64,000 nucleotides of DNA from a virus. Lineage: Duplodnaviria; Heunggongvirae; Uroviricota; Caudoviricetes. Below the pieces are notes generated by a model. The model was not told the DNA's origin. It did no database searches and was given only the letters and a program-made list of their open reading frames with translations. The position numbers and the translations under genes were made by a program. Of the stretch, positions 10,588-46,042 are shown in pieces (the first letter of the stretch is position 1; each line of letters starts with the position of its first letter). Location of the stretch: the IMG/VR virus record IMGVR_UViG_3300028146_000009, positions 25,850 through 89,849 of that record. One strand, given 5' to 3'.

Positions 10588-10600
10588 TTTTTATATACTC

Positions 10601-15700: not shown

Positions 15701-18102
15701 TATTTACCCGCTAATGACCCTGCAACATCTGCAACCGTTGTAATTTGAGTAATTTCTGGTTTTCCAACAACAAAGAAAAAAGTTTCGGTGGTAATTCCAT
15801 TAGTAATGGTTATACTGGGATGACCACCACCATTAAATTCGGCAATCATTTGCGCAACACCTAATAAATTTAAACTTTGTGTAAAAAGTGTCGCGGTGTT
15901 GGCATAAAATACACAGTTTTTAAAAAGATTAATATCTAAAGCAAAGGGAGGAATATTATTAGCTTGTAAAATTCCTTCACCAGTAGTAGCATTTGTATAA
16001 AGAAATGCCCCGGCAAACTGCGGCGGGGTAATATCTAAAATGGTTATAGTTCCGGCTGCTATTTGAGCATCAGTAGGAAATCCCTCAAAAACTAATTGAA
16101 GTTCATCATTAGGAAAAACATCAGTCGCTAAAATTTGGGTTCCAGTGGCCTGAGCGATTGGTGATCTATAAATTTGATAAAAATCTGATGTTGTAACTCC
16201 AGGGGGTACTGTAAAAGTTACAAAGACATTAGCAGTAGTTGTAAGTTGAATTGGAGAAATAAATCGAGTTTGAGAATTAGAACTAATAATTGGAGGAGTT
16301 CCAGTATCAGGTTCTGATTGCAATTGTGTAATAATTGCTTGTAAATAAACTTGTAATGCAACTAATTCAGCATCCGTTGGGGGTAAATCAGGAACTCCAG
16401 GTTGGGCAATTGTTTCATAATTAAAATCATTAATAGTGGGATTTAAAAAAGTTACAGGACCGGTAGCAGTGGTATTAAAATTAATTCCAGCTTCAAAATG
16501 AAGAGTATCACCGACAACTGTAGCAGTTGCATTATTTGAAATTGTAATATTACCAATACCAATAGCAGTGACATAAGTTAAAGGAGGAATTGCCCCACCT
16601 GTATCGGTTACAATAGAACCAATTTGAATTCCAGAGCTTGAAGCTATTGAAGTTATAATATTGGCATCAACTCCCGGGACTGTAGTCATTACAGTAAATC
16701 CAGTTGTTCCAGCCACCGCATTAGTACTAGCTCCAACTTTTGAATTTGTAATGGTTACGGTATTTGTTCCAGCATTAGATGCAGTAAAATCACCATTAAA
16801 TCCATTCATAGCAGAAGCAATGGCAGTTGCTACTTGAATTGCAGTAGCATTTGTTATAACATTTACTCTGATTCCAGTTCTATTGGGAATCATTGGATCA
16901 GTGCCGGTGTTATCAACATTTATCCAGACATAATAATCTGTGACATTATCAGCATTGCTATTCGTAAAATAAGTACCCGTTAAAGAACCCGAAGTATCAG
17001 CAATAGTTTGAACTGTAGTGACTTGTTGAGCACCAGTTGTAGTATTTCCAGTAGTAGAAAAAGCAGGAACAATGGTAGAAATTGTCTGACCAACTAATAC
17101 ACCAGAAGAATCAGGTACTGTATTTAAAGTTCCGGTAGCAGGAGTAAATCCTAATAAATTTATATGATCGCCCGAAATAAAATAATCTGCTGGATTTCCA
17201 GAAGAAAAACTAATAGTTGCAACTCCATTATTAATACTAATTCCATTTATTTGTAAAGGAGTGGTGGCAGCAGTATCAGCTAATTGAATGTCATGGTCTA
17301 ATTTTTGCACTAAAACAATTAAATTATTCTGTAAATCTGTAGCAGAAGCTGATGCGGGTAAATTTAAAGTCGTGAAATAATTTCCATCATTTATAATGCT
17401 AGGATTTGCTGAATTATTAGAAATATTATCTAATTGAATTAAAAGATTATTAAAATCTAATAATTCTAAATCAATAAGAGGATTATAGATTACAGATCTA
17501 GCACTGGGGGTTCCTAAAATTTCATTTCCATTAGCATCATTAAATCCCCAAACTTGACGATAAGCAACTGCACTATCTTGAGGTAAGAAGTCTGATTCAT
17601 TTCCTAAAGTTAAATCTAATCTTGTTGAAATATCTAGTGCTGGAATTCCCCCGGCGGGTGTAATAAAAGGACAAGCCGTTGTAAAGTCCGCAGCAGTTTT
17701 AGCTGAGATAACTTGAATTCCTTCTTTAGAAGTAAAGAAAAGATTTCCATTAGCTTCAATGTAACGAATTCTTCTTCCTGGAGCCGGTTCTAAAAAAGTT
17801 CCGCAAAATGTATCAAATATTGACTGTTTAAGAGCATTTAAAACTAAAGTATCCCATTGAAGTGAAGAATCAAAATGACGAATAATTCGACCTTTATAGG
17901 TCATCAATTGTTTTGCAACATCAGAACTTGTGCCGAAAGGAGTTCCATAAAGAGGATAACCACGTCGAGATTCGACAGTGGAGTCACGTTTAATAATTAC
18001 ATTACTTGCTTGTAAAAGTGAGCCAGGAGGAGTGACCTGAGGATCAAGAAAGTTAGGTGAGGTGTTTAGACCTATCGCCTTTAAAACTATATTATTTGCC
18101 AT
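12703..18102 (-). CDS. giant (1799 aa) tail fibre/spike-like structural protein with four copies of a ~50-aa ISGSNSTPSIDG module
   Basis: S/T/N/G-rich beta-type composition. Repeats appear as xPHGLxxGxxIxIxGSNSTPSIDGxYxVTVxSxTTFSIPVNV at about 13440, 13620, 13990 and 15030. Confidence 0.6.
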   Translation of the reverse strand: MANNIVLKAIGLNTSPNFLDPQVTPPGSLLQASNVIIKRDSTVESRRGYPLYGTPFGTSSDVAKQLMTYKGRIIRHFDSSLQWDTLVLNALKQSIFDTFCGTFLEPAPGRRIRYIEANGNLFFTSKEGIQVISAKTAADFTTACPFITPAGGIPALDISTRLDLTLGNESDFLPQDSAVAYRQVWGFNDANGNEILGTPSARSVIYNPLIDLELLDFNNLLIQLDNISNNSANPSIINDGNYFTTLNLPASASATDLQNNLIVLVQKLDHDIQLADTAATTPLQINGISINNGVATISFSSGNPADYFISGDHINLLGFTPATGTLNTVPDSSGVLVGQTISTIVPAFSTTGNTTTGAQQVTTVQTIADTSGSLTGTYFTNSNADNVTDYYVWINVDNTGTDPMIPNRTGIRVNVITNATAIQVATAIASAMNGFNGDFTASNAGTNTVTITNSKVGASTNAVAGTTGFTVMTTVPGVDANIITSIASSSGIQIGSIVTDTGGAIPPLTYVTAIGIGNITISNNATATVVGDTLHFEAGINFNTTATGPVTFLNPTINDFNYETIAQPGVPDLPPTDAELVALQVYLQAIITQLQSEPDTGTPPIISSNSQTRFISPIQLTTTANVFVTFTVPPGVTTSDFYQIYRSPIAQATGTQILATDVFPNDELQLVFEGFPTDAQIAAGTITILDITPPQFAGAFLYTNATTGEGILQANNIPPFALDINLFKNCVFYANTATLFTQSLNLLGVAQMIAEFNGGGHPSITITNGITTETFFFVVGKPEITQITTVADVAGSLAGKYFTLNSADDLNQYYFWYIVSGSGTDPMVSGKTGIAININIGDSANTVAQKTNNVIDSLILDFTSTVSTNVITVTTVGEGVTTDATAGTSGFSILVTQQGAGQNASQQQVLLSNSISPAVAVNETAQSLINVINSQPNGIVSAFNLSDVQSVPGQIELQGRAIGDPAFSILGSSDAVGASFNPNISPQIFISGNTATNPTVVTTSTPHDLSNNEQVVISGSNSTPSINGLYNITYISPTTFSIPVNVTIAGTTGALSTLVDTLTATNLSKPNRIYYSKILQPEAVPLVNFIDVGAQDQPILRIFPLRDSLFVYKSDGLYRISGEVAPFNLALFDLSCILLAPDSLDVSNNLIYGWTTQGITSTSESGVNIISRPIDVDILPKATPQYTNFLSATWGIGYESDNSYTTYTVSAFDDVYATVAYRYSTLTNTWTTFAKTDNCGVINAADDRQYLGAGDTNFLEQERKNFDRTDYADREFIQEITPTNLIGNKIILQNITEAAVGDVITQDQTLTVFNYNSLLSVLDSDTALSLKITNISAANPTIITTNINHGFTTGEIIDITGSNSVPSIDGLQVVTVLSANTFSIPVRVTTAGSLGATHSYSSILTMVEGDDARLKLDALIAKIATDPGRLSQPGAFPGSDYTQYEAINGTFEIVNVTPTSPTVLTTSVPHGLTTGRSITITGSNSTPSIDGVYQVTVISSTTFSIPVNVSVNGMMAITAISAANPTVITSPGHGLISGQQILISGSNSTPSIDGLKTVTVLTPNTFTVPVHVTVAGTQGEWIPNIVYIVNNEDFLDVEASFNGVVNTLNQDPGTAFKRYQLITYNTLQEAIITNVNLATKTITLNLTLPFIQGPITIFKAIPTLIQYTPQDMGDALSFKHFRESLLFFEQKDFTSAVLSFASDLLPAFTAVPVFGTGNGIFGYTGFPAPVNGQFNIPGFGYGFFGGAGNSAPFRTYVPRNAQRCRFLNIQFGSQVAREKWSLQGVVVVGENTQSSRVYR

Positions 18103-27194: not shown

Positions 27195-27491
27195 TTACTT
27201 TTTTATCTTCTTGATTTTGCGCGGTTTTTTTAAATATTGTATTACATTCAAATATCGATAAGGAATGGTATTTAAATGAATATAAGTCAAACAATATTCT
27301 TCAAATTTACTATCTTCATTTATACATACCCAATTTTTACCATCATTACTACCAATAATTTGAACTTGAGGTCGAAACTTCTTCATTTTAATAAAGTTCC
27401 TACAAAATAAATCCCAAACATGCACATTAAAACTGTTGGAGTCATTGTTAAAATTGCCATAACGTTCCAAATCATTTAAATCCTCCAACAT
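27195..27491 (-). CDS. hypothetical protein with basic C-terminal tail
   Basis: 98 aa, ending KKPRKIKKIKK. Confidence 0.35.
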   Translation of the reverse strand: MLEDLNDLERYGNFNNDSNSFNVHVWDLFCRNFIKMKKFRPQVQIIGSNDGKNWVCINEDSKFEEYCLTYIHLNTIPYRYLNVIQYLKKPRKIKKIKK

Positions 27492-27900
27492 AATTACGAA
27501 ATACTAATTCATCATTAAATACTTTATATTCTTTTATCGAAAACCCTTTTTTATAATGCTCCAAATAAAATTTAATAGCTTTTAAATGATCATAATCCTT
27601 ATAGAAATCATCTACAATTAAACCGATGCATTTATTATCTTCAATCCCATTATCATCACAAAGAAGCATTCCGATTATTCGAACTTTTACCTCGCTCAAA
27701 GGAATTAAGGGCTCAAAACTAATGACAAATACATCTAGATCATCCCCGTCAGCTTGAATTGGAAGATCTTTGATAAATCCATAATTTTGAGGGCAAGGGA
27801 TCGGAAGAACCCTATCTAGCATTAAAACACCGGTTTCTTTATTTTTTTCAGATTTAAGGTAAGATCCTTTTCCAATTTCTATAACCGCAGTAAATTCCAT
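27472..27900 (-). CDS. ppa: family I inorganic pyrophosphatase
   Basis: VIEIGKGSYLKSEKNKETGVLMLDRVL and DGDDLDVFV match PPase active-site signatures (EIPxGSxxKYExDKExG...DGDPLDVLV). Confidence 0.7.
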   Translation of the reverse strand: MEFTAVIEIGKGSYLKSEKNKETGVLMLDRVLPIPCPQNYGFIKDLPIQADGDDLDVFVISFEPLIPLSEVKVRIIGMLLCDDNGIEDNKCIGLIVDDFYKDYDHLKAIKFYLEHYKKGFSIKEYKVFNDELVFRNYVGGFK

Positions 27901-27986
27901 TAATCCTCCAAATCGTTCTGAAAGAAACTGTCATAATAAAAACTGACTGCTAAAAGATAAGTTCCAATAAAAAGTGCGAATTCCAT
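27900..27986 (-). CDS. 28-aa hydrophobic peptide (below ORF-track cut-off)
   Basis: Hand-translated MEFALFIGTYLLAVSFYYDSFFQNDLED. GGAG RBS. Its stop overlaps the ppa ATG. Confidence 0.2.
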   Translation of the reverse strand: MEFALFIGTYLLAVSFYYDSFFQNDLED

Positions 27987-28318
27987 TATAATTTATCTCC
28001 AATTTTTTTCATTTTGATTAATGCTGAATTTGCTTCACTTTGTACATCATCAACATGCATTGGTCCAAATGTTATTTTATTTAAAGATTCAATGGCAATA
28101 TCTAAACATTTAAATAAATCATCTAATTCATGCCGCGCTCTTAGAATAAATTCACCATCGTCGCAATGCCATTGATGAACACCTCTAGAAGTACCCCAAT
28201 GTTTACTTAAACTAGCTCTTGGCGGTACAATATCTGTATTAAATGGATAATTCGATGTGCCCTTCCAATCTTTTTTAGGTGCTGATTTTTCTAAGGATTC
28301 TCTAAGTTTTTTAAACAT
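27986..28318 (-). CDS. hypothetical protein
   Basis: 110 aa, coupled to its neighbours. Confidence 0.4.
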   Translation of the reverse strand: MFKKLRESLEKSAPKKDWKGTSNYPFNTDIVPPRASLSKHWGTSRGVHQWHCDDGEFILRARHELDDLFKCLDIAIESLNKITFGPMHVDDVQSEANSALIKMKKIGDKL

Positions 28319-28677
28319 TATAATTTCCTCAAAATTACTTCGTAAATTGGTTTTTTCAATTTTAACATATTATCTTTCATATTACTAGAACCTTTAGATT
28401 TTCCATCCCAAATTAAAAGTAAGGCATCTGAATAATCTGCCATTTCTTTATTTCTTCTGGGACCAGCTGCTTTTCCGTGTTCATTCCAATCTGCGGGGAA
28501 ATACTTTACTGATAGGGCCATATGAGAAGCATAATAATCTCCTTCAGTATCAACACCTTCAGCTCCACCACAAATGACTTCAGTAATAAGTTTATTAATT
28601 CCAAATAATACTAATGATGAATGTATTAGTTCAAAAGTTGGATATAAGTCTCTAGATCCAGCAATGATTATTTTCAT
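28318..28677 (-). CDS. DprA/SLOG-like Rossmann-fold protein (DUF2493-like)
   Basis: IIAGSRD...VICGGAEGVDTEGDYYA...LLLIWDGKSKGSS resembles the DprA/Smf and SLOG nucleotide-binding core. Confidence 0.4.
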   Translation of the reverse strand: MKIIIAGSRDLYPTFELIHSSLVLFGINKLITEVICGGAEGVDTEGDYYASHMALSVKYFPADWNEHGKAAGPRRNKEMADYSDALLLIWDGKSKGSSNMKDNMLKLKKPIYEVILRKL

Positions 28678-28738
28678 AAAACTCCTTGTATATTCAGAAA
28701 TTATAAGTTACTATCAAACAATTGTAAAGGAGAATTTA

Positions 28739-28936
28739 ATGAAATCTGGATGGAAAATAGAATTTCTAGATAATATTGAAAGAATAGATAAATGGAGGGA
28801 GACTGCTTATTGGGCCATTGGCATTATTGAAAACTATGAATCAGCGTTAGAAACAATTTCTTATATGGGTCCAGATGAAGCGGAAACTGAAGCAAAAATT
28901 GTAGCAAAAGAAGCTTTGGAGAAAAATAATGCCTGA
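28739..28936 (+). CDS. hypothetical protein (start at internal ATG with AAGGAG RBS)
   Basis: First gene after the strand switch. Overlaps the Pnk start. Confidence 0.35.
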   Translation: MKSGWKIEFLDNIERIDKWRETAYWAIGIIENYESALETISYMGPDEAETEAKIVAKEALEKNNA

Positions 28937-29798
28937 ACTAATTTTAATGGTCGGCCCCGCAGGTTCTGGAAAATCCACATTAAGCCGCACGTTTGGATCT
29001 AAATACGTAAGAATTAATCAAGATGAACTTGGAAAAGAAGGCCATAAAGAACAATTTAATCTTTCATTGCATGCTGGACATAATATAATTATTGATCGAA
29101 TGTCATTTTCCAAAGAACAACGAGCCCGTTATCTCGAGCCCGCAAAAAAAGCGGGCTATAAGTGCTACATTAAAGTGCTACATGAAAACTTCGATACATG
29201 CTTGGAAAGAATGAAGAAAAGAGAATTTCACCCTACTATAAAAGATGAAAAAACTGCTAAAAAGGTTTTAAACTTCTTTTTTTCAAAATATGAACGTCCA
29301 ACTCCAGATGAAGCTGATGAAATTGAATTTCGATATCCTGAAGGCGAAAAACCACTTGCTGTCATTTGCGATTTGGATGGAACTTTGTGTGATATTGATC
29401 ATAGACTTCATTTTATTCATCCGCCCGAAGGAGTTAAAAAAGATTGGAAAAGTTTTTCTGAATCTTTAAGAACCGACGGTATAAATCAATGGTGTAGAGA
29501 AATTTTATGGAATTTTGAAGATAAAGGAAAAAATATTGTATTATGTTCAGGAAGGTCTGATAATTATAAAGATTTAACTATTGATTGGTTAAATAATAAT
29601 CATATTTATTATACTAATCTTTTCATGCGACACCGAGATGATTATAGGAAAGATGACATTGTAAAAGAAGTGATTTTAGATTTTGAAATTCTAACTCGTT
29701 ATAGGCCGTATTTTTTTATAGATGATAGAAAATCAGTGGTGGACATGTGGCGTAAAAGAGGATATACTTGTCTTCAATGTGCAGATGGGAACTTTTAA
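28929..29798 (+). CDS. pseT: polynucleotide 5'-kinase/3'-phosphatase (T4 PseT-like)
   Basis: P-loop VGPAGSGKST. HAD-phosphatase DxDGT (AVICDLDGTLCD). C-terminal DDIVKEV...IDDRKSVVDMWRKRGYTCLQCADGNF is closely similar to the T4 Pnk C-terminus. Confidence 0.85.
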   Translation: MPELILMVGPAGSGKSTLSRTFGSKYVRINQDELGKEGHKEQFNLSLHAGHNIIIDRMSFSKEQRARYLEPAKKAGYKCYIKVLHENFDTCLERMKKREFHPTIKDEKTAKKVLNFFFSKYERPTPDEADEIEFRYPEGEKPLAVICDLDGTLCDIDHRLHFIHPPEGVKKDWKSFSESLRTDGINQWCREILWNFEDKGKNIVLCSGRSDNYKDLTIDWLNNNHIYYTNLFMRHRDDYRKDDIVKEVILDFEILTRYRPYFFIDDRKSVVDMWRKRGYTCLQCADGNF

Positions 29799-30590
29799 AT
29801 GATTAAAATTCAAACATTAGATTTAATTGAAAATAAAGAACATATTGTAAAATCTACAATTTTTCCCGATGGAACTTCACAAGTTTGGAAATTACCAGAA
29901 GAAATTATTAATTCATTAAATTTAAAAATAACTTGGAATTTCGAAGCTGAAAGAGAATTAATTGATCTTAGAAGTTTACGAGCATTAACTTTAAAAAATT
30001 CTCATGTTCATTGCCATATTCCATACTTACCTTATGCCCGGCAAGATAAAAATGTAACAAATAATACAAGCTTTAATTTAGATATTTTTGCTGAAATTTT
30101 AAATCTATGTCAATTTAATCTTATAACCGCAGTTGATGTTCATAATAAAGAACAAACTTATAAACTTATTAAAAATTTTCAAAATATCCCAGTAACTGAA
30201 CAAATTAATAAGTTAGCTGATGAATACGATGTTGTGTTATTTCCAGATAAAGGAGCAACTGAAAGATATAATGCTAAGATCACAAATTCAAAACAGTTTA
30301 CTTGTGTTAAAGAAAGAGACCAAACAACTGGTCAAATTTTAAATCATAAATGCCCAGAATTAGCATATCCAATGGTTAATTCAGTTTTAATTGTGGATGA
30401 TATTTGTGATGGCGGCGCAACTTTTATAAGTGTTGCTAAAATGTTAAAAGCCCAAAAAGATTTTAAAATAGGATTATTTGTAACTCATGGAATTTTTAGC
30501 AAAGGAAAACAAGTTTTACTTGACGCCGGCATTCAAAACATATACTGTACTAATAGTCTGCTAAAAAATGAAGATGGATTTAAAGTATGA
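29799..30590 (+). CDS. ribose-phosphate pyrophosphokinase-fold protein (Prs homolog; candidate ADP-ribose pyrophosphokinase Adps)
   Basis: FPDGTSQVW, VVLFPDKGATERY and PRPP-binding VLIVDDICDGGATF match Prs motifs. 263 aa, shorter than canonical Prs. Confidence 0.7.
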   Translation: MIKIQTLDLIENKEHIVKSTIFPDGTSQVWKLPEEIINSLNLKITWNFEAERELIDLRSLRALTLKNSHVHCHIPYLPYARQDKNVTNNTSFNLDIFAEILNLCQFNLITAVDVHNKEQTYKLIKNFQNIPVTEQINKLADEYDVVLFPDKGATERYNAKITNSKQFTCVKERDQTTGQILNHKCPELAYPMVNSVLIVDDICDGGATFISVAKMLKAQKDFKIGLFVTHGIFSKGKQVLLDAGIQNIYCTNSLLKNEDGFKV

Positions 30591-31321
30591 AAACACAAAA
30601 AGACCTTATTGATTTTTTTAATGGAGTAGATACAAAAAACTCATCAATTACTCCTGAACAAAAGGCATTCCTCCAATCTATAGGTAGATATCATCCATCT
30701 ATTACTCAACAAGAAATGAATGAAATTACTAATGCGTTTTCTGGGAATTTAGCAGGTCATGATGTTAGAATTGGATATTATGGAGGAATGGCAAGTATGG
30801 CTAATTCTAAGCAATTACCTAGGGTTCAAGCCGCAACTCCTTTAAAATCAGGTATTAAATACGTAAAAATGTCACTTTTTGATGCACCTAATGGATCAGT
30901 TCTAGTGCATGCTTGTAATGCCCAAGGTGTTTGGGGATCTGGAATTGCTAAAGAATTTAAATCAGTATTTCCAAAAGCTTTTGATGAATACAATAATTAT
31001 TGTAATATGAATTTACCATATCATTCAGTTGGCACAACTTTAATTACAAAGCCTGAAAATTCATACCGAGTTGGATGTTTAATCACTTCTTCTGATTTCG
31101 GTGCCCGATTAAATGCAGAACAATTAATTCTAACGCATACTAAACACGCACTAGATAAATTAGGTGAAATGTGTAATGATAATACAATTTACTCAAATAA
31201 ATTTAATAGTGGATTTTTTAAAGTTCCTTGGGAAAAAACTGAGAAACTTATTAATGATTTTGTTAAAAAATATAACCGAGTATGGGTCATTTGTGATCCA
31301 GACTTACAGGAGAAAAAATAA
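30587..31321 (+). CDS. macro-domain-like protein (ADP-ribose binding/processing)
   Basis: VLVHACNAQGVWGSGIAKEF and GTTLIT resemble the macro motifs VNAANxxLxxGGGVxxAI and GxAxIT. Confidence 0.4.
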   Translation: MKTQKDLIDFFNGVDTKNSSITPEQKAFLQSIGRYHPSITQQEMNEITNAFSGNLAGHDVRIGYYGGMASMANSKQLPRVQAATPLKSGIKYVKMSLFDAPNGSVLVHACNAQGVWGSGIAKEFKSVFPKAFDEYNNYCNMNLPYHSVGTTLITKPENSYRVGCLITSSDFGARLNAEQLILTHTKHALDKLGEMCNDNTIYSNKFNSGFFKVPWEKTEKLINDFVKKYNRVWVICDPDLQEKK

Positions 31322-32683
31322 ATGCTTTTATTTGCAATTTTAGGATTAGCCGGACTATTAACAATAACAATGTTATCCACATTGTTTCTAAGAAAAGTGG
31401 TTCCAACAAATGAAGTACATATTGTCCAATCAGCTAAGAAAACGACTTCTTACGGAAAAGATACTGGAAATGGAAATACTTATTATGAATGGCCAATTTG
31501 GTTGCCATTTTTAGGTGTTAGAAAATCTCAAATGCCAACAAGCGTTTTTAATTTAAATATTAAAGATTACGAAGCTTATGATAAAGGTAGATTGCCATTT
31601 GTTGTAGATGTGATGGCATTTTTTAGAATCGATGATTCAAATGTTGCAGCTTCAAGAGTTGCTAGTTTTCAAGAACTTGATGCACAACTTCAAGCAATTG
31701 TTAAAGGATCTATTAGAACAATTTTAGCAAATAATGATATTGAAACTATTTTGGCCAGCCGCGCAGTGTTTGGCGAACAGTTTACCGAGGAAGTTAAAGA
31801 ACAACTTAAACACTGGGGGGTTTGTGCAGTAAAAAATATTGAATTAATGGATATTCGAGATCATCAAACGAGCCAAGTTATTCATAACATTATGGAAAAA
31901 AAGAAATCTCATATTGAAATGGAATCTCGTACAGAGGTTGCCAAGAATATGAAATTAGCACAAACTGCTGAAATTGAGGCTAAACGAGAAGTAGATCTTA
32001 GCCAGCAAGAAGCCCAGCAAACTGTAGGTTTAAGAATGGTTGATACTCAAAGAGAAGTTGAACTTTCAAAACAAGCATCATTACAAGCTGTTAAAGAACA
32101 GGAACGTCTTACTAAAGAAAAAGAAATGAATGTTGTAAGAGTTGAGCATGTAAAAACTGCTGAAATCAATCGGGACATGGCGGTAGTCCAAGCAGATCAA
32201 TCTAAACAAACAACAATTTTGGCCGCCGAGGGAGAAAAACAAAAAACAGTTTTGACCGCTGAAGGTCAACTTGAATCACAAAAACGAAACGCTGAAGGTA
32301 TTACATTAACCGGTCAAGCTAAAGCAAATGCAGAAAAAGCAATGCAATTAGCTCCTGTAGAAGCTCAAGTTGTTTTGGCGAAAGAAATTGGTCAAAATGA
32401 ATCATACCAAAAGTATTTGATTACAATTAAACAAGTTGAAGCTCAGCAAGCAATTGGTGTGGAACAAGCTAAAGCGCTTGATAAAGCAGAAATTAAAGTA
32501 ATTGCAAATACTGGATCTAATATTAGTTCTGGATTAAATAATGTAATGGATCTATTTTCAGCTAAAGGTGGCCAACAAATTGGTGCAGCACTTGAATCTT
32601 TAGCAAATACTGATACTGGTAAAGCATTGATTGAAAAAGTTGTAACACCTAAAAAACCAGCCAATGGTAGTGCTAATTTGTGA
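31322..32683 (+). CDS. SPFH/band-7 (flotillin/HflK-like) membrane protein
   Basis: N-terminal TM. SPFH core NEVHIVQS...VMAFFRIDD...IRTILANNDIETILASR. Long C-terminal E/K/Q coiled coil. Confidence 0.65.
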   Translation: MLLFAILGLAGLLTITMLSTLFLRKVVPTNEVHIVQSAKKTTSYGKDTGNGNTYYEWPIWLPFLGVRKSQMPTSVFNLNIKDYEAYDKGRLPFVVDVMAFFRIDDSNVAASRVASFQELDAQLQAIVKGSIRTILANNDIETILASRAVFGEQFTEEVKEQLKHWGVCAVKNIELMDIRDHQTSQVIHNIMEKKKSHIEMESRTEVAKNMKLAQTAEIEAKREVDLSQQEAQQTVGLRMVDTQREVELSKQASLQAVKEQERLTKEKEMNVVRVEHVKTAEINRDMAVVQADQSKQTTILAAEGEKQKTVLTAEGQLESQKRNAEGITLTGQAKANAEKAMQLAPVEAQVVLAKEIGQNESYQKYLITIKQVEAQQAIGVEQAKALDKAEIKVIANTGSNISSGLNNVMDLFSAKGGQQIGAALESLANTDTGKALIEKVVTPKKPANGSANL

Positions 32684-32724
32684 GAAATAAACAAATTTTA
32701 GAAATGTCTACAAATGGAGAAAAA

Positions 32725-34212
32725 ATGAATTATAATCCAATGCTACTTTGTGATTTTTATAAAATTAGTCACCGGGCAATGTATCCAGAAGGAACTGAAA
32801 CCGTCTATTCAACTTGGACACCCAGGGCTTCAAGAATGAAAGGTGTAAATGAAGTTGTAAACTTTGGTCTTCAAAAATTTGTTAAAGAATATTTGATTTC
32901 TTATTTTAATAAAAACTTTTTTAATAAAAGTAAGAAATATCTTGTAGATGATTATAAGAGAATTATTAAAGGAACATTGGGAGTTGAAAATCCTGATACT
33001 CAACATATTGAAGATCTTCGAGATTTAGGATATTTACCACTTTCAATTAAAGCTCTTCCAGAAGGAACTAAAGTTCCGCTTCGAACTCCAGTGATGACAA
33101 TTCAAAATACCAACCCTAAATTCTTCTGGCTTACTAATTTCATTGAATCTTTAGCGAGTTCTGAACTTTGGCAAGCATCAACTTCTGCAACAATTGCCCA
33201 TGAATATCGTAAAATTCTTGATAAATATGCAATGGAAACTGTAGGAAATACAGATTTCGTTCAATTCCAAGGCCACGATTTTTCATTTCGCGGAATGAGC
33301 AGTCTTGAATCTGCAGTAAATTCAGGCCTGGGTCATCTTCTTTCTTTTGTAGGAACTGACACAATTCCAGCAATTCAAGGGGCCGAGCACTTTTATAATG
33401 CAAATGTTGAAAAAGAACTAGTGGGGACTTCAATTCCAGCCACTGAACATTCAATCCAATGCACTTATCAAGATGATATGAAATATCTAGAAACCATGCT
33501 TACAAAAGTTCATCCTAATGGTTTTGTTTCCATTGTAAGTGATGGTTATGACTTTTGGAATGTTATTGGAAATGTTTTACCAGCTTTTAAAGATAAGATA
33601 ATGGCGCGCAGTGGTGGCCCGATCGGGGACCGAGTAGTAATTCGTCCTGACTCGGGAGATCCTGTTAAAATCGTTTGTGGTGACCCTAGCGCCTCGCCAG
33701 ACAGTTTAGAACATAAAGGTGCGGTGGAGGCATTATATGATATTTTCGGTGGATCAATTACAACTAATGGTTATAAGTTGCTTGATTCCCATATTGGTCT
33801 TATCTATGGCGATGCTATTACGCTGGAACGATGCAAAGAGATTTGCGGACGACTTAAGTCTAAGGGTTTTGCGAGCATTAACTGTGTTTATGGGATTGGT
33901 TCTTTTACTTATCAGTACAATACTCGTGATACATTTGGTTACGCATTAAAATCCACACTTGCAGTAATTAATGGTGATGAAAAGATGATTTTTAAGGACC
34001 CAAAAACTGATGATGGAACTAAAAAGAGCCAAAAAGGACGAGTTGCAGTTTTTAAAAATGAAAATAATGTTATTGAATGGGAAGATAATTTATGGCTAAA
34101 TGGACCTAATTCAAGATTAACTGGTAACCTTCTACAAGAAGTTTTTCGAGATGGAAAATTATTGGTGGATGAGAATTTTAGCACGATTAGAGATAGGTTG
34201 AAGAATAGTTAA
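32725..34212 (+). CDS. nadV: nicotinamide phosphoribosyltransferase family (NadV / Namat-like)
   Basis: LCDFYKISH, GHDFSFRGMSS, VSDGYD and IRPDSGDP match NAMPT signatures. Start set at the ATG after the GGAG RBS. Confidence 0.85.
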   Translation: MNYNPMLLCDFYKISHRAMYPEGTETVYSTWTPRASRMKGVNEVVNFGLQKFVKEYLISYFNKNFFNKSKKYLVDDYKRIIKGTLGVENPDTQHIEDLRDLGYLPLSIKALPEGTKVPLRTPVMTIQNTNPKFFWLTNFIESLASSELWQASTSATIAHEYRKILDKYAMETVGNTDFVQFQGHDFSFRGMSSLESAVNSGLGHLLSFVGTDTIPAIQGAEHFYNANVEKELVGTSIPATEHSIQCTYQDDMKYLETMLTKVHPNGFVSIVSDGYDFWNVIGNVLPAFKDKIMARSGGPIGDRVVIRPDSGDPVKIVCGDPSASPDSLEHKGAVEALYDIFGGSITTNGYKLLDSHIGLIYGDAITLERCKEICGRLKSKGFASINCVYGIGSFTYQYNTRDTFGYALKSTLAVINGDEKMIFKDPKTDDGTKKSQKGRVAVFKNENNVIEWEDNLWLNGPNSRLTGNLLQEVFRDGKLLVDENFSTIRDRLKNS

Positions 34213-34235: not shown

Positions 34236-34859
34236 ATGTTTGGAATGAATAAAGCCGCGAAAGTTAAAATCGACCGATCAACGGAACAAGTTTTGGAATT
34301 GGAAGCCCAAAAGAAACGTTTAGAAATGGAACGTGATCAAATTCAAATTGAACTTCAAAATCAAAAGAAGCGAGAAGGAATGAAACTTGAAGAAGAAGCT
34401 CATAAACAAAAGCTTAAACTTCAAGAAGAAACCGCAGTATTTAATCGTGAAAAGTTGATTTGGGAAAAAGAAAAACAAGAACTTATTGACCGCGCGGCTC
34501 GTGAACGTAAAGAATTTGAAGAAACCCATAAACGTGAATCTGAACTTAAAACTCAAGAAGCTGTAACTCTTACAAAACTTGAAGCTCAGCAAAAAATTAA
34601 ACAAGCTGAAATTGATAAAGCTCGCGAAGTAAATGAAGTGAGAACTAAAGCTGCTGAAGAACTTTCTGCAACTAAATCAAGTTTAGCCGAAGATTATTAT
34701 AATAAACTAACTGCCGCTTTTCAAGATATTCAAATGAATGGCGATAAAAATAGTAAGTTTGTTCAAGAATTAGCTTTAAAAGTTTTTGATCGAGTTCCAA
34801 GTTCTGATGTGAGAGTCGATGTAAATCAACCTAAACTTGTGCAAGGATCTAGTAATTAA
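34236..34859 (+). CDS. K/E-rich coiled-coil protein
   Basis: 207 aa with a heptad-like E/K/Q composition. Confidence 0.45.
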   Translation: MFGMNKAAKVKIDRSTEQVLELEAQKKRLEMERDQIQIELQNQKKREGMKLEEEAHKQKLKLQEETAVFNREKLIWEKEKQELIDRAARERKEFEETHKRESELKTQEAVTLTKLEAQQKIKQAEIDKAREVNEVRTKAAEELSATKSSLAEDYYNKLTAAFQDIQMNGDKNSKFVQELALKVFDRVPSSDVRVDVNQPKLVQGSSN

Positions 34860-35344
34860 TGTCTGTAATGCAAAATTTAGGCGTAAACCAACAACATTAT
34901 TATAGTCAGGGTGATCAATTAGGACGATGCCCTCAATGTTATGGAACTACGGTTCAAAATATTGGCACATTAAATGTAAATGGGACTGTGCAAGATGTAA
35001 ATAATTGTACAAGTTGTAATAGAATTTTCACTGGAACAAATGGTGGAATTCAATCTTTAGTGCAAGAAGCGCAAAAACTCTATAATACTCAAAATGTTGG
35101 ATTTCAATCTCAAATGGCAATGGGTCAAAATTTAGGACAAGCTGGAATGCAATACCAACCGCCAGATAATAGTTATAAATTTGACCAAATGAATACTAAT
35201 TTACAGCTACTTTTAAATCAAATATCAACTTTAACTCAAGAAATCTTAAGGATTGCAAATCAAAACCAGGACCTAATGACAAAATTAGCAACTGATCCAC
35301 TTGTAAATATTAGGAAAAGAGTTTCAGACTTTAATCTTGAATGA
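34859..35344 (+). CDS. zinc-ribbon-containing Q/N-rich protein
   Basis: CPQCYG...CTSCNR. Confidence 0.4.
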   Translation: MSVMQNLGVNQQHYYSQGDQLGRCPQCYGTTVQNIGTLNVNGTVQDVNNCTSCNRIFTGTNGGIQSLVQEAQKLYNTQNVGFQSQMAMGQNLGQAGMQYQPPDNSYKFDQMNTNLQLLLNQISTLTQEILRIANQNQDLMTKLATDPLVNIRKRVSDFNLE

Positions 35345-35997
35345 ATAAAATAAACATTTATACAGCAGCAGGAGGCATGGAAATCTGTTATCTAATGGAT
35401 CTCCCAGATAAAATCGCCCGAAATAAAATCCAAAATGGTCGATTAATAGTTCCAAGTATTAAAAAATCAAATGCTGGGGTATTATATAATGAAAATCCAT
35501 GGGAAATTATAAGTCAACAAATTACCCAAGCCGAATATAAATTAAATGAATTTTATAGACAGAATGCTATGGAACAAGTTGATTATAAACGACATTATCT
35601 GGAAGACCAACCCATTTATAAGGCTGAAAAAAACCAGATTCTTTTAGAATTTAAAACGATGCTCGCCAAAAAAACTCCATTTGCATTTATAAAGGATTTG
35701 AATCTTAAAAAAATCGATGAATTATCAAATGAATATGCAATAAAATTCGGGGATAATGATTTTATTGGAGTTGAGGCAAATTTAAGCCCTTACCAGAAAT
35801 TCTTCTCAATTATAAATTTAAGTGATTTAATATTTTATATGGTAGAATTTAAAGATATAACGAGTGATTCCACAATTTATAAAGGAAAATTAATAAATGT
35901 TAATCCAGATAATTGGATTTGTTATAGATATGAAAATTTGGAATATTTGAAAGAATTAAATCAATTGAACTATTTTAATCGGTTGGATAATAAATGA
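35341..35997 (+). CDS. hypothetical protein
   Basis: 218 aa, ATGA-coupled. Confidence 0.4.
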   Translation: MNKINIYTAAGGMEICYLMDLPDKIARNKIQNGRLIVPSIKKSNAGVLYNENPWEIISQQITQAEYKLNEFYRQNAMEQVDYKRHYLEDQPIYKAEKNQILLEFKTMLAKKTPFAFIKDLNLKKIDELSNEYAIKFGDNDFIGVEANLSPYQKFFSIINLSDLIFYMVEFKDITSDSTIYKGKLINVNPDNWICYRYENLEYLKELNQLNYFNRLDNK

Positions 35998-36176
35998 TTG
36001 ATCCTTTTGATTTAGATTTTTATAAACAATGGATTCTAACTGGAACTGTTATATTTAAAATTGTTTCTGATGAAAATGGTAATATTACTAAAGAAATAGT
36101 AGATCCAAATGATTTAAGTGGACAAGAATTTGAACATTTAGAAATAATTGAAACTTTTAAAAGGAAAAATGAATGA
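35994..36176 (+). CDS. hypothetical protein
   Basis: 60 aa, ATGA-coupled. Confidence 0.3.
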   Translation: MIDPFDLDFYKQWILTGTVIFKIVSDENGNITKEIVDPNDLSGQEFEHLEIIETFKRKNE

Positions 36177-36370
36177 AAAATTTAAAAGATCTAACCGAAG
36201 ATCAATTAATGGAAATGCATACAGAAGCTTTATTTGAGATTAGTTACCATACCGCAGAAATTAAACACCTGGAAACTCATATTAATGAAGCAGTTGAAAC
36301 TATGCAGGCTGTTGATGAAGAAATGGATTCTAGACAAAATGGGCCAAAATTAAAGCCAGTTAATAATTAA
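36173..36370 (+). CDS. hypothetical protein
   Basis: 65 aa, ATGA-coupled, last gene of the island. Confidence 0.3.
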   Translation: MKNLKDLTEDQLMEMHTEALFEISYHTAEIKHLETHINEAVETMQAVDEEMDSRQNGPKLKPVNN

Positions 36371-37155
36371 ACTTTATATCTCCAATAATAACCAGCGGCT
36401 TGTAATCTTTCACCCCTGATAACCCGCCTAACCTGCTTTGGTTGAAATCCTTTATTAGTTAAGTCTTCGCAATTATCAAAAGTTACTATTTCTCCGGTTT
36501 CAACATTAATACCCTCAATAGGCTTTAAAAAATCATGTTTAAAAGCTCCTATAAGGTCTAGAGCTTGTTTTTTATAGAAATCTGGGTCATCTACTGTTTT
36601 ATAGAACCAGCACTGTTTCTGGCCCGTTTTAGCAGTTTTATTCAAAGCGGAATAAATAGAAGATACTGAAAAACCATCACGGCGGGCATCATGAACTCTA
36701 CTATAAAACTTAACCGATCCATCATAGATTGATACTGCAACTATTGGAACTGCCTGGGATTCACCAGCTTTTTGATTAGATTCTTCTCTTTGTTTTCGTT
36801 TTTCAGGATCAGCCCATTCTTTTAACATTGTTTTTTTATTATTTTCTGCTAATCTTTCCCATCTAGTGGGGTCAATTGTATTATAACCATTTGGTTCCAT
36901 AGTATTAAATAGGTCTATAAAATACATTTCCAATTCTTCTAAATCAGATTTAATAAAAACAGTGCATATTTCTTCAATTTTAAAACTAGACTCACCATAT
37001 TTTTTAATGGCTTTATGGAAATAACAATTAGTATCTTTTTTAGCTAGATACTTGTGATTACTCCAACGAATCTCTGCGGTGTTCTTGGTAGAACCCACAT
37101 ACATTTTTTTATTAGTTTTATTTGTTATTAAATAAATACAACCTTCACGTTTCAT
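36367..37155 (-). mobile_element. freestanding GIY-YIG homing endonuclease gene
   Basis: GCIYLITNKTNKKMYVGST (GIY..YVG). Downstream R, H, YGESSF, ELE and PNGYN catalytic motifs. Sits just downstream of the capsid-gene terminator. Confidence 0.75.
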
Positions 37156-45392: not shown

Positions 45393-46042
45393 TATTTTAA
45401 ATCCTGGTTTGGATATACATATGAAATTTTTCTAGTTTTAATATCCATAACCCTTACTCGTCCTTTATTTGGGGCTGTTTTTCCTTTTTGAAATCCAATT
45501 TTTAATAATCTTTCTTTTTCTTTAGTAGAAGCTGGAATTCCTTTTTTAGGACTAGGTTTATTTCTTTTTTTCCCTTTATTATAAGTGTTACCTTTTAATG
45601 AATTAGAAATTTTTTGCCTAGTTTCTAAACTAACTTCATGCCCTATCAAAGATTTGCTTATTTTTTGTTTATGCTCATGATTTAATGGTTTATTTTTTAA
45701 TTTTTCAGATCTTTTATTTAAAGTCTCTATAGAAGGTAAATAACCACCATGATCTCTATTATATCCATTGGGATTTAAACAATTAAATGTCTTTATATAA
45801 TAAATTTCTTTTTCAATTAATTCTTGTTTGGTTAATACTGTTTCTAAAATTTCAAAGGTAAAATTTTCAATACCGTATTGAATCATCTTTTGAACAATAA
45901 GATGATGCGTACCTTTTTTATTTTTAACCATTGACTTATATGTTGAAAATCTAGCTTTAAATCCGACTGTTGTAATACCGATATAAATTTTTCCATTAAT
46001 TTTACAAGTAATCCTATAAACCTGCATCATGCCATCCACCAT
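45392..46042 (-). mobile_element. GIY-YIG homing endonuclease gene with NUMOD3-like DNA-binding repeats
   Basis: VYRITCKINGKIYIGITT, YGIENF, LNPNGYN. C-terminal HKQKISKSLIGH and TRQKISNSLKGN repeats. Overlaps the fibre 3' end by 16 nt. Confidence 0.7.

Follow-up and report, generated by a model that had tools for sequence, protein, structure and literature searches.

A predicted NARP1-type NAD+ reconstitution island with an associated macro-domain gene in an uncultured phage genome

An uncultured phage genome of ~90 kb (89.9 kb) bears a NARP1-type island (NAD+ reconstitution pathway 1) at positions 27195-34212 of the window, the 64,000-nucleotide stretch of DNA analysed here. Judged from its sequence, the core of the island is very probably a NAD+ reconstitution operon of this type. 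The island as a whole is likely to be a NARP1 operon in the 'associated phosphatase' layout (NARP1-AP), joined by accessory genes with the roles proposed below. The two-enzyme pathway has already been described; the copy in the window adds genes for an ADPR-phosphate phosphatase-like protein, a pyrophosphatase and an SPFH protein.

Organization and setting of the island

The seven genes and the domain assignments of the first-pass annotation were all reproduced by an ORF check and by Pfam and PHROG profiles (Table 1). Three small unannotated ORFs of 98, 110 and 65 aa are additions to that gene list. The gene calls of the source contigs also include the 65-aa ORF, and homologs of the 110-aa ORF are absent from every fetched locus.

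The strand switches at 28678-28738. On the plus strand, the genes between 28739 and 34212 follow one another closely, with successive gaps of -8, 0, -4, 0 and -4 nt, the start codon of the macro gene overlapping the Adps stop, and the SPFH gene abutting the macro gene and overlapping the start of Namat. Pnkp is the first long gene of this packed unit, which extends to 36370. Promoter and terminator scans returned nothing above chance. The G+C content is lower in the island (0.30-0.34) than in its flanks (0.36-0.42).

The island was previously placed between tail-fibre and capsid genes. Its surroundings are a structural module of the SU10/P22-like kind; no profile supports the two gene labels, and neither gene has a Pfam match. 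In two related contigs, L016 and L017, the same slot, between long structural genes and a gene of 417/418 aa, is occupied by a variable form of the island.

Table 1. Features of the island and of the packed unit that continues from it (positions in the window)
Feature	Length (aa)	Position	Strand	Details
ORF	98	27195-27491	-	Downstream of the pyrophosphatase gene; no Pfam/PHROG match; split by the source gene caller into 63 aa + 30 aa
Family I inorganic pyrophosphatase (PPase)	142	27472-27900	-	PF00719 75 bits, 7.5e-21
ORF	110	27986-28318	-	Ends at the start of the SLOG gene; no Pfam/PHROG match
YAcAr-family SLOG protein	119	28318-28677	-	PF10686 29.4 bits (cut-off 28.2); phrog_289 9e-23
ORF	65	28739-28936	+	Good ribosome-binding site aaggag; overlaps Pnkp start by 8 nt; no Pfam match
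Polynucleotide 5'-kinase/3'-phosphatase (Pnkp)	289	28929-29798	+	HAD_PNKP 1.2e-32; AAA_33 1.3e-14; phrog_505 1.5e-54
Adps-type enzyme (ADP-ribose pyrophosphate synthetase, Prs fold)	263	29799-30590	+	PF14572 31 bits
Adpp-like macro protein (predicted ADPR-1''-phosphate phosphatase)	244	30587-31321	+	PF01661 1.5e-9; phrog_335 1e-17
Membrane-anchored SPFH/Band_7 protein	453	31322-32683	+	Band_7 65 bits, 9.4e-18; between Adpp and Namat
Namat (nicotinamide ADP-ribose transferase)	510	32680-34212	+	GTG start; PF04095 8e-40; PF18127 2e-8; phrog_448 5e-193
Five ORFs	207, 161, 218, 60, 65	34236-36370	+	Co-oriented, gaps 23, -1, -4, -4, -4 nt; continue the packed unit; no Pfam or PHROG match

The Namat and Adps enzymes

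By sequence, the NAMPT-like protein is a Namat. Its top match among 50,697 phage records is the Namat of phage SPbetaL1 (60.3% identity across 97% of the protein), which is the crystallised enzyme (PMC12774641). The Namat of FADO is 57% identical, and NARP1 has been experimentally validated for both phages (doi 10.1101/2024.02.11.579819). In the PDB, its highest scores are 679 bits (9w5w/9w5x) and 504 bits, compared with ~205 bits for genuine NAMPTs. The adenine-clamp (SCH) motif GSFTYQYNTRD is a literal match to the published motif, the SCL arginine R52 is present, and the NAD+-contact residues reported for the SPbetaL1 enzyme are identical at 20 of 20 positions. The clamp-less Nampt of Mx1, whose gene has CTP_transf_like genes as neighbours, deviates precisely where the clamp residues lie. 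The strong NAMPT motifs and Namat-like character seen in the first-pass annotation are upheld by the two Pfam matches, the clamp and the contact residues.

The Prs-like protein groups with the Adps clade, apart from cellular Prs, in sequence comparisons. In a neighbour-joining tree, the split between the cellular Prs (an outgroup of only three sequences, two of them partial) and the validated Adps together with the window protein received 100% support over 200 bootstraps. The protein is sub-threshold on all curated Prs models, as the validated Adps is; on TIGR01251 it scores 88 bits and SPbetaL1 Adps 106, both under the cut-off of 113, against 423 for E. coli Prs. PHROG 619 is unable to separate Adps from Prs. 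In an alignment with SPbetaL1 Adps, K171 falls on the catalytic K162, and the motif DDICDGGATF stands at the place of the Prs motif DD(M/I)I(D/S)TGGT. Identity to the validated or operon-defined Adps compared is only 26-34%. Namat accompanies Adps in all 80 of the IMG/VR loci. Sequence searches against canonical Prs and NAMPT/NadV had been proposed as a check on the two proteins, and they place one on the Adps side and the other on the Namat side.

In the proposed pathway, a host defence would first cleave NAD+, with TIR, SIR2, DSR and SEFIR giving ADPR and nicotinamide, and aRES defence giving ADPR-1''-phosphate and nicotinamide. Adps would then convert ADPR with ATP to ADPR-PP, from which Namat would form NAD+ and PPi with nicotinamide. 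These two reactions have been demonstrated for the SPbetaL1 homologs (Osterman et al. 2024, doi 10.1101/2024.02.11.579819; PMC12774641). In the window phage, clade membership and residue identity point to the same activities.

It is very improbable that the pair serves canonical salvage, in which the Prs-like protein would make PRPP, the NAMPT-like protein would make NMN, and NAD+ would be completed by way of the host's NadD, NadR or PncC. Such a route would fit the Pfam, PHROG and NCBIfam names of the two families (ribose-phosphate pyrophosphokinase and nicotinate/nicotinamide phosphoribosyltransferase), and Namat enzymes are still able to make NMN from PRPP in vitro. It is opposed by the complete adenine clamp of the window Namat and by the place of the Prs-like protein on the Adps side of the split, under the curated Prs cut-offs. 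Furthermore, SPbetaL1 Adps yields no product in a PRPP-synthetase-type assay and produces ADPR-PP from ADPR and ATP, and the NARP1 of Bas63 is functional in a pncC nadR double mutant. A nearby NMNAT gene would also have spoken against pathway 1, and no NMNAT-fold (CTP_transf_like) gene occurs in ~88 of the 89.9 kb (the window plus roughly 24 kb of flanks). NARP1 is supported over canonical PRPP/NMN salvage, as every sequence-level test applied favoured it. The original argument for pathway 1, from Prs and NAMPT homologs without an NMN adenylyltransferase, is reinforced by the clamp, the Adps clade and this wider search.

Adps and Namat likewise share one operon in the NARP1 of Bacillus phages SPbetaL1 and FADO and Escherichia phage Bas63 (doi 10.1101/2024.02.11.579819). 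The likeness to SPbetaL1 and FADO covers the Namat sequence (60% and 57% identity), its SCH motif and NAD+-contact residues, and the catalytic lysine of Adps. Unlike Namat, the window Adps shares only 28% and 27% identity with its counterparts in the Bacillus phages; the Adps of Gram-negative phages are nearer to it (34%). The reference operons consist of two adjacent genes, whereas in the window the macro and SPFH genes lie between Adps and Namat.

The macro-domain protein

The macro protein consists of a lineage-specific extension (residues 1-87) and a Poa1p-type macro domain (residues 88-244). Its top PDB match by sequence is yeast Poa1p (6e-17), the next macro domain reaching 1e-3. An AF2 model (pLDDT 86.5) also has Poa1p as its top Foldseek match (1e-13, TM 0.79). 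Poa1p residues H23, N26 and F152 are kept, together with the C-terminal motif NSGxFxVPW; S30 is replaced by V and G33 by S, as in other operon-embedded phage macro proteins.

In NARP1-AP of Vibrio phage Gary (Adps-Adpp-Namat), the Adpp phosphatase converts ADPR-1''-phosphate made by aRES to ADPR, the macro gene directly follows Adps and the closest characterised homolog is Poa1p (Osterman et al. 2026, doi 10.64898/2026.01.28.702374). By sequence, the window has this published layout, but its macro subfamily differs from Gary Adpp: the window protein is of the Poa1p-proper type (GVWGSG...NSGFFKVPW), the Gary protein carries RMGRG...GCGLAGGDW, and the 87-aa N-terminal extension is a further difference. 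The GVWGSG subtype lies between Adps and Namat in two other loci and after Adps in L017. Poa1p-like macro proteins are found in 2,665 phage records, and in many of these NARP1 is missing.

By analogy with these relatives, the window protein probably acts as an ADPR-1''-phosphate phosphatase. It would strip the 1''-phosphate from ADPR-1''-phosphate, an activity demonstrated for Poa1p of yeast and Adpp of Gary (doi 10.64898/2026.01.28.702374), and in the window phage would allow aRES-type products to enter the pathway. The first-pass suggestion that the macro domain could supply free ADPR is made more precise in this way by the Poa1p matches and the position after Adps. The setting differs from that of yeast Poa1p (PDB 6LFQ/6LFR), which clears a by-product of tRNA splicing, the phage role being a predicted counter-defence.

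A de-ADP-ribosylase of the TARG1/DarG type, or an O-acetyl-ADPR deacetylase, is unlikely in its place. The former would remove ADP-ribose that ADP-ribosyltransferase defences of the host have attached to DNA, RNA or protein, and might still free ADPR for NARP1. The next structural matches after Poa1p are TARG1 and DarG macrodomains (6e-10 and 4e-9), there is a weak NCBIfam DarG match (29.8 bits), Gary Adpp, the only phage Adpp so far validated, shows no significant BLAST similarity (E 0.9), and Poa1p S30 and G33 are not kept. Weighing against these points are the clear lead of Poa1p in both sequence and structure, the conserved residues and C-terminal motif, the location described for Adpp, and the inclusion of both macro subtypes within PHROG 335.

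Accessory genes

The acidic motifs of the pyrophosphatase, DGDDLDV and DDNGIEDNK, align with solved PPases. A family I PPase homolog is present in only 12 of the 50,697 phage records. L016 and L017, the two closest relatives, keep the gene at the same place and in divergent orientation (61% and 56% identity), and it is found in three of the 80 IMG/VR Adps loci, always 1.4-1.7 kb from Namat. Six contigs, from only two lineages, have it no more than 1.7 kb from NARP1. From this linkage and from knowledge of the family, the divergently transcribed enzyme probably hydrolyses the PPi released by Namat, pulling NAD+ synthesis forward. This role was proposed in the first-pass annotation and gains support from the linkage and the rarity in phages. 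The chances of a functional coupling to NARP1 are about even. The link appears to be unreported and is a candidate lead.

The protein first described as flotillin-like matches Band_7, has a hydrophobic N-terminus, and has QmcA and stomatin as its closest solved relatives. An ortholog with 58% identity directly follows Namat in one further locus, and other SPFH subfamilies adjoin NARP1 in four more. Of seven non-redundant loci, five have an SPFH gene no more than 1.2 kb from the Adps-Namat block (18% expected; P about 0.003), and these neighbours belong to at least four mutually distant subfamilies. The Mx1 Nampt cluster also contains an SPFH gene. The ortholog in Gary (49% identical) lies ~30 kb from the NARP1-AP operon, near a PnuC-like transporter gene, whereas the window gene is inside the operon; that of Xanthomonas phage X1 is likewise not adjacent to NARP1. 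The operon-embedded protein might act as a membrane scaffold, and a functional coupling to NARP1 is put forward tentatively, as a rather doubtful possibility. The recurrence of SPFH genes inside or beside NARP1 operons appears to be unreported and is a candidate lead. It was not foreseen in the first-pass annotation.

The SLOG gene is probably incidental to NARP1, and its homologs are widespread in phages (720 records). Such a gene lies near NARP1 in four loci, and the sequence search gave no solved relative. The earlier DprA/SLOG-like call stands in its SLOG part (PF10686, phrog_289); membership in the module is doubtful.

The sequence of Pnkp shows the P-loop GPAGSGKS and a DLDGT motif, and its top solved relatives are Pnkp1 (4xrp, 1.5e-22) and T4 Pnk (1ltq, 5e-14). 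It adjoins Adps in both L016 and L017; in general it is not enriched near NARP1 (none of eight within 1.2 kb). An Rnl1-type RNA ligase gene is located elsewhere in the genome, ~36 kb from Pnkp, and is likewise without proximity enrichment near NARP1. Linkage and family knowledge suggest that the two would provide a separate tRNA-repair function against anticodon nucleases. The tRNA-repair role first assigned to Pnk is strengthened by the ligase, but its inclusion in a single NAD+ module is not. In T4, Pnkp is similarly a kinase/HAD-phosphatase with both motifs, and the Rnl1-family ligase lies at a separate locus. Unlike in T4, the ligase of this phage scores 67 bits on TIGR02308, under the curated cut-off of 242, and Pnkp belongs to the packed transcription unit of NARP1.

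The mixed content of the island may also reflect a hotspot of unrelated accessory genes, in which cooperation is limited to Adps, Namat and possibly the macro protein, and the PPase, SPFH, SLOG and Pnkp genes serve other ends (nucleotide metabolism; membrane, lysis or exclusion; RNA repair). This is a serious possibility, though with somewhat less than even chances. Island content differs among close relatives, L016 lacking the macro, SPFH and SLOG genes and L017 the SPFH and SLOG genes, and two GIY-YIG homing endonuclease genes occur in the window, one of them close to the island. The lack of proximity enrichment of Pnkp and Rnl1, the abundance of SLOG homologs and the distant Gary and X1 SPFH orthologs are also in keeping with a hotspot. 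Chance assembly is harder to reconcile with the excess of SPFH genes of several subfamilies beside Adps-Namat, the SPFH gene of the Mx1 cluster, a PPase that hardly any phage encodes but that, wherever these lineages carry it, is no more than 1.7 kb from NARP1, and the translational packing of the island genes.

Relation to other NAD+ restoration systems

A NARP1 operon shares the aim of restoring NAD+ during infection with NARP2 (Nampt + NMNAT/Nudix, Vibrio phage KVP40) and NARP3 (PnuC-like + NadR-like, phage Bas30; PMC13464706), and a NAMPT-family enzyme is common to the window and NARP2. In contrast to these systems, no NMNAT-fold, PnuC-like or NadR-like gene was found, and the NAMPT-family enzyme of the window has the ADPR-PP clamp, which is missing from NARP2-type enzymes. 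The predicted logic of a 'feeder' enzyme beside NARP1, which turns a defence-made ADPR derivative into ADPR, is shared with RyDEP + NARP1 of mycobacteriophage DyoEdafos (doi 10.64898/2026.05.28.727677), although a RyR-domain protein is lacking from the window. In L016, the closest relative, a weak RyR-like ORF of 71 aa takes the place of the macro gene in the Adps-Namat slot.

Layout of the island

ORF listing and profile searches recovered all seven genes that the first-pass annotation had named, each in the position it had been given. A divergent spacer of 61 nt separates the minus-strand genes from the plus-strand genes. From the 65-aa ORF through Namat, the gaps between successive plus-strand genes are -8, 0, -4, 0 and -4 nt, and five further ORFs extend the packed unit to 36370. 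Consensus scans of the island for promoters and terminators gave nothing above shuffled expectation, so it is the packing of the genes that points to an operon. The metagenomic contig that contains the window is 89,881 bp long and was recovered in other samples too. When the island was compared by megablast with 50,697 phage records, nothing matched, and the phage is known from metagenomes only. The remainder of the window is an SU10/P22-like structural module. Two free-standing GIY-YIG homing-endonuclease genes are also present; the first of these, at the end of the packed unit, could aid the movement of cargo in the hotspot.

Genes of the island and other features of the window (window positions)
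Feature	Position	Strand	Evidence
Family I pyrophosphatase (PPase)	27472-27900	-	PF00719, 7.5e-21
ORF, 110 aa	27986-28318	-	
YAcAr-type SLOG protein	28318-28677	-	Pfam just over cut-off; phrog_289, 9e-23
ORF, 65 aa	upstream of Pnkp, after the divergent spacer	+	
Pnkp	28929-29798	+	
Prs-fold protein (Adps)	29799-30590	+	
Macro protein	30587-31321	+	
SPFH protein	31322-32683	+	
NAMPT-like protein (Namat)	32680-34212	+	
Structural protein, 1,799 aa	12703-18102	-	ubiquitin-E1 FCCH domain, 1.6e-10
GIY-YIG homing endonuclease	36367-37155	-	
Protein, 203 aa	39149-39760	-	ubiquitin-E1 FCCH domain, 9e-5
Glycine-rich paralog	43428-44405	-	
Glycine-rich paralog	44409-45392	-	
GIY-YIG homing endonuclease	45392-46042	-	NUMOD3 motif
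Portal protein (P22/SU10-type)	50323-53475	-	Hint and LAGLIDADG domains
RF-1 domain protein, 122 aa	59603-59971	-	

Adps and Namat

In the NARP1 pathway, Adps converts ADPR and ATP to ADPR-PP, and Namat combines ADPR-PP with nicotinamide to yield NAD+ and PPi; the pathway is carried by ~4.3% of phages (doi 10.1101/2024.02.11.579819). Namat is separated from Nampt by an adenine 'selectivity clamp', described in a 2026 structural paper as a conserved helix motif (SCH; G-S-X-Phi1-X-Phi2-X-Phi3-T-R-D, X being aromatic) together with a stacking residue in a loop (PMC12774641). Residues 407-417 of the window protein read GSFTYQYNTRD, which conforms to this motif and is the same as in the phages SPbetaL1 and FADO, both with validated NARP1. 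Its R52 aligns with R40 of SPbetaL1, and all 20 residues reported as NAD+ contacts in the crystal of SPbetaL1 Namat are the same in the window protein, including R40, F392 and Y396. The Nampt of Myxococcus phage Mx1, encoded beside cytidylyltransferase-fold genes, departs from the window protein at exactly the clamp positions and reads GGALLQMVNRD in place of the motif. Among the 50,697 phage records the best match is SPbetaL1 Namat, with 60.3% identity over 97% of the length, and FADO follows with 57%. The scores against these two proteins are 622 and 596 bits, compared with 204 for Mx1 Nampt; the top PDB entries give 679 and 504 bits, compared with ~205 for genuine NAMPTs. These comparisons support the identification of the NAMPT-like protein as a Namat, predicted to make NAD+ directly from ADPR-PP.

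The Adps of the window is 34% identical to that of Salmonella phage pSal-SNUABM-01 and 28% identical to that of SPbetaL1. In a neighbour-joining tree (200 bootstraps), a 100% split divides the Prs proteins of E. coli, S. solfataricus and T. volcanium, a small outgroup of three cellular enzymes, from a group formed by the Adps of SPbetaL1, FADO, phi3 and pSal, the window protein and 10 of its relatives. The window protein falls below every curated NCBIfam cut-off for Prs. Against TIGR01251 it scores 88 bits with a cut-off of 113, where the validated Adps of SPbetaL1 is also below the cut-off (106 bits) and E. coli Prs reaches 423. K171 aligns with the catalytic K162 of SPbetaL1 Adps, mutation of which kills that enzyme. 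As the same lysine is kept in Prs (K194), it would speak for competence and not for specificity. The phosphate-loop motif is DGGAT in the window Adps and DTGGT in Prs, a difference which is only suggestive of the use of ADPR over ribose-5-phosphate. PHROG 619 was rejected as a discriminator of Adps from Prs, with 193 bits for E. coli Prs against 215 for the window protein.

A Namat gene in the immediate vicinity has been published as a criterion that holds for 97% of the Adps clade. Here Namat starts 2.1 kb downstream of Adps within the same packed unit, and it was found at all 80 of the IMG/VR Adps loci sampled, which had been retrieved with an Adps alignment. Scans of IMG/VR with single proteins had returned one relative for the macro protein and none for Adps. 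When compared with Adps and Namat on one side and with canonical Prs and Nampt on the other, both window proteins side with the former. The first-pass annotation had proposed NARP1 for this pair, and the published marks of membership support it, namely the clamp, the contact residues, the Adps clade and the lack of an NMNAT-fold gene in the ~88 kb covered.

Alternative NAD+ pathways

Two other reconstitution routes have been described in phages: NARP2, which pairs Nampt with NMNAT, and NARP3, which pairs a PnuC-like transporter with a NadR-like enzyme (PMC13464706). An NMNAT (CTP_transf_like) was sought by Pfam scan among 40 further ORFs of the window, among the labels of the flanks reached via exact-protein look-ups (19.5 kb on the upstream side, 4.5 kb on the downstream side), and by phmmer with true CTP_transf_like seeds. 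None was found in ~88 of 89.9 kb, which covers all but ~1.8 kb of the contig, and the claim that no NMNAT gene lies nearby held over this range. NARP2 was rejected on this result and on the presence of the clamp in Namat. NARP3 was likewise rejected, since neither a PnuC-like nor a NadR-like protein appears among the Pfam results or the labels. In the upstream flank, an AAA_28 protein of 182 aa gives a faint match of 18.8 bits to the half of NadR that acts as nicotinamide-riboside kinase, and it is not an NMNAT.

This 182-aa P-loop protein lies beside a dGTP/dATP diphosphohydrolase N-domain protein (6930-7871 of L006, the stretch upstream of the window). In Mx1 (OR576727.2; two neighbouring genes of locus L014, 320-874 and 931-1806), the one of the two products that is annotated as 'nicotinamide-nucleotide adenylyltransferase' is also an AAA_28 P-loop protein. 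With this mis-annotated protein as seed, AAA_28-like genes were found in 2 of the 80 IMG/VR Adps loci.

The macro gene

A macro-domain gene named Adpp is present in 15% of NARP1 operons according to a January 2026 preprint, and the three-gene form is known as NARP1-AP (doi 10.64898/2026.01.28.702374). In Vibrio phage Gary, Adpp removes the phosphate from ADPR-1''-phosphate, which the aRES defence produces, and so makes it usable by NARP1; the closest characterised homolog of Adpp is the yeast protein Poa1p (doi 10.64898/2026.01.28.702374). NARP1-AP is defined operationally by a PF01661, PF14519 or PF20016 protein within two genes of NARP1 (doi 10.64898/2026.01.28.702374). The macro gene of the window overlaps the stop codon of Adps, and its product matches PF01661 with 38.3 bits, which places it inside this definition.

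The main rival reading is that the protein is a de-ADP-ribosylase like DarG or TARG1. Both appear among the Foldseek matches of its AlphaFold model (49 relatives, pLDDT 86.5), where they stand behind Poa1p, the top match at 1.4e-13 and a TM-score of 0.79. Poa1p is also the best solved relative by phmmer (6e-17), and the next macro domain reaches only 1e-3. Three Poa1p residues are kept in the window protein (H23, N26 and F152), and two are replaced (S30 by V, G33 by S); their roles are taken second-hand, from PMC12846349 and from PDB mutant entries. Across ~35 phage macro homologs, position 33 is nearly always Ser and position 30 is variable. On its layout and its homology to Poa1p, the window operon is filed as NARP1-AP, with a phosphatase activity predicted for the macro protein.

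Similarity to Gary Adpp itself (KNV71_gp137) is not significant by BLASTP (E 0.91), and both proteins match Pfam Macro. PHROG 335 is matched by the window protein and by the Gary-type macro proteins of phi3 and of locus L019. The macro proteins linked to NARP1 form two subfamilies, a Gary type with RMGRGIA...GCGLAGGDW and a Poa1p-proper type with GVWGSGIA...NSGFFKVPW, and each of the two types has members next to Adps and Namat or between them. Locus L002, which has a macro gene, opens with an Adps and a Namat ORF. A subfamily closer to Poa1p in the position of Adpp would widen the family beyond the members assayed to date.

The window macro protein carries an N-terminal extension of 87 aa, modelled as three short helices and a disordered linker. 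The extension has no Pfam match, no similarity to RyR and no homolog in the fetched loci, and in the protein database it is common only to the closest relatives.

Other occupants of the Adps-Namat slot

The neighbourhoods compared were those of graded Adps relatives and of the 80 IMG/VR loci. Macro genes lie inside the Adps-Namat block in 8 of the 80 loci and within 600 nt of it in 8 more. NADAR genes are inside the block in two (L064, 12206-12745; L029, 10748-11245; 168-170 bits to Pfam) and within 170 nt of it in a third (L045, 12648-13232), and NADAR looks like another embedded accessory of NARP1. The slot or its edge may also hold SPFH or, in the closest relative without a macro gene (L016), a weak RyR-like ORF. 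This 71-aa ORF between Adps and Namat (8792-9007) matches RyR at 7e-5, with 23.4 bits and a cut-off of 27.4. RyR proteins have been reported to cleave cADPR signals and thereby feed NARP1 (doi 10.64898/2026.05.28.727677). The contents of the slot fit a published idea, that of 'feeder' enzymes which turn ADPR derivatives made by defences into ADPR.

In L017, the other of the two closest relatives, a 68-aa ORF (16289-16495) contains an Acb2/Tad1 hairpin domain with 29.7 bits, above the cut-off, and is likely to encode a signal-sponge anti-defence protein.

The pyrophosphatase

The PPase matches PF00719 with 75 bits (cut-off 23.5), and its acidic metal-binding motifs DGDDLDV and DDNGIEDNK align with those of solved PPases. 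It is short, at 142 aa, and with a score of 73.5 against 200 it is under the cut-offs of the NCBIfam equivalogs. The two closest relatives, whose Adps are 72% and 61% identical to that of the window, hold the PPase at 61% and 56% identity, again placed divergently next to Pnkp-Adps. In three more contigs of another lineage among the 80 IMG/VR loci, a PPase is located 1.4-1.7 kb after Namat. The linkage to NARP1 is thus seen in six contigs which represent only two lineages. Homologs occur in just 12 of the 50,697 phage records, some of them bacterial scaffolds or fragments.

It had been suggested in the first-pass annotation that the PPase removes the PPi made by Namat. The rarity of the gene in phages and its tight linkage to NARP1 support this inferred role. 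The tie in two lineages suggests that in infected cells it is the removal of PPi which limits NAD+ resynthesis. The word 'pyrophosphatase' is absent from both Osterman preprints (doi 10.1101/2024.02.11.579819; doi 10.64898/2026.01.28.702374).

The SPFH gene

The SPFH protein matches PF01145 with 65.3 bits (cut-off 23.6) and QmcA at 1e-8. Its N-terminus is hydrophobic, MLLFAILGLAGLLTITMLSTLFL, as would be expected of a membrane anchor. Band_7 genes, all above the Pfam cut-off, occur in 8 of the 80 Adps loci. With distance from the Adps-Namat block within these IMG/VR loci as an internal control for neighbour enrichment, five of the seven non-redundant genes lie less than 1.2 kb from the block, against 18% expected (P ~0.003). 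The gene is found between Adps and Namat in L030, as in the window, directly after Namat in L077 and L026, and after Namat-macro in L039. The proteins beside NARP1 fall into four or more subfamilies with less than 30% mutual identity, and an N-terminal membrane or lipoprotein signal is present in each; that of L026 is a 58% ortholog of the window protein.

At a greater distance, SPFH genes lie 2-5 kb from NARP1 in pSal-SNUABM-01 and L018. In Mx1, the gene next to the AAA_28 one, labelled 'hypothetical protein', encodes SPFH/Band_7 (8e-24) and lies inside the cluster with the clamp-less Nampt and two CTP_transf_like genes. Orthologs of the window SPFH are not adjacent to NARP1 in Xanthomonas phage X1 or in Gary, where the distance to NARP1-AP is ~30 kb. 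The Gary gene (gp192) lies in a tRNA cluster (locus L103, 4935-6314 and 7532-8703). Some 1.2-1.8 kb downstream of it are genes for a nucleoside 2-deoxyribosyltransferase and for a PnuC-like transporter of nicotinamide riboside or NMN, the latter 1.8 kb away. Gary, which encodes this ortholog, is a phage already used in experiments.

A pairing of NARP1 with SPFH was not found in the literature searched, and the term 'SPFH' is absent from the 2024 Osterman preprint (doi 10.1101/2024.02.11.579819). Possible roles include membrane organisation of NAD+ resynthesis, a shield against membrane-bound NADase effectors and control of precursor flux. The recurrence of SPFH by NAD+ reconstitution genes in distant phages hints at a membrane-linked side to the NAD+ arms race.

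Pnkp and SLOG

The Pnkp is a genuine polynucleotide kinase-phosphatase, with kinase and HAD-phosphatase domains and matches in the PDB. It adjoins Adps in the lineage of the window; elsewhere, none of eight lies within 1.2 kb of NARP1. A ligase of the T4-type Rnl1 family (358 aa; L006, 1086-2162; PF09511 RNA_lig_T4_1) is encoded upstream of the window, ~8.5-9.5 kb from its start, with 67 bits to TIGR02308, below its cut-off of 242. This ligase is likely to be the partner of the island Pnkp. The earlier suggestion that Pnkp points to tRNA repair gains from the presence of the ligase in the same genome, and T4-like repair is the simplest reading of the two genes.

The SLOG protein barely passes the PF10686 cut-off (29.4 bits against 28.2). 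It has no PDB match, and its single-sequence AF2 model has a pLDDT of 45. Among phage records, 720 have a homolog, SU10-like phages included, and homologs lie near NARP1 in a few loci. YAcAr domains have been predicted in published in-silico work to act on NAD+/ADPR derivatives; any link of SLOG to NARP1 is doubtful.

Significance

NAD+ depletion is among the commonest anti-phage strategies of bacteria, and NARP1 is the main known answer of phages. The core of the island is an already known system, as both NARP1 and NARP1-AP are published. The window differs from the described NARP1 cases in the subfamily and N-terminal extension of its macro protein, in the SPFH gene embedded in the operon, in the conserved PPase and in the fusion of the unit with Pnkp. 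The locus adds little to the core NARP1 story and offers three testable extensions, the macro subfamily, the PPase and the SPFH, and it is the associations of PPase and of SPFH with NARP1 that merit experiment. It is put forward tentatively, as a possibility more than an expectation, that NARP1 here is a larger machine, with a PPase helper that pulls the Namat step and a membrane-anchored SPFH scaffold as accessory, at least one of which measurably improves counter-defence. In such a machine, SPFH would have been recruited independently from several subfamilies, into or beside NARP1 and a NARP2-like cluster.

Other genes of the phage

The portal gene holds an intein-like insertion at residues ~495-765, where the Hint and LAGLIDADG domains are found. 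The FCCH matches in two proteins of the window probably reflect the reuse of a small beta-domain among virion proteins. The RF-1 domain protein resembles a peptidyl-tRNA hydrolase or an ArfB-type ribosome rescue factor; it is unusual in a phage and is possibly relevant to defences that target translation.

In locus L100, the family B DNA polymerase appears to be split in two, into a 507-aa exonuclease-domain gene (8351-9874) and a 235-aa gene (10001-10708) with a 45-aa ORF between them. Some homologs of the 235-aa protein match PF00136.

The two tandem glycine-rich paralogs contain 38-40% glycine, with Gly runs of up to 14, and have no Pfam match. Their N-termini are related (62% identical across the first ~77 residues), their C-terminal ends are similar, and they account for a local G+C peak (0.51) and a strong negative GC skew.
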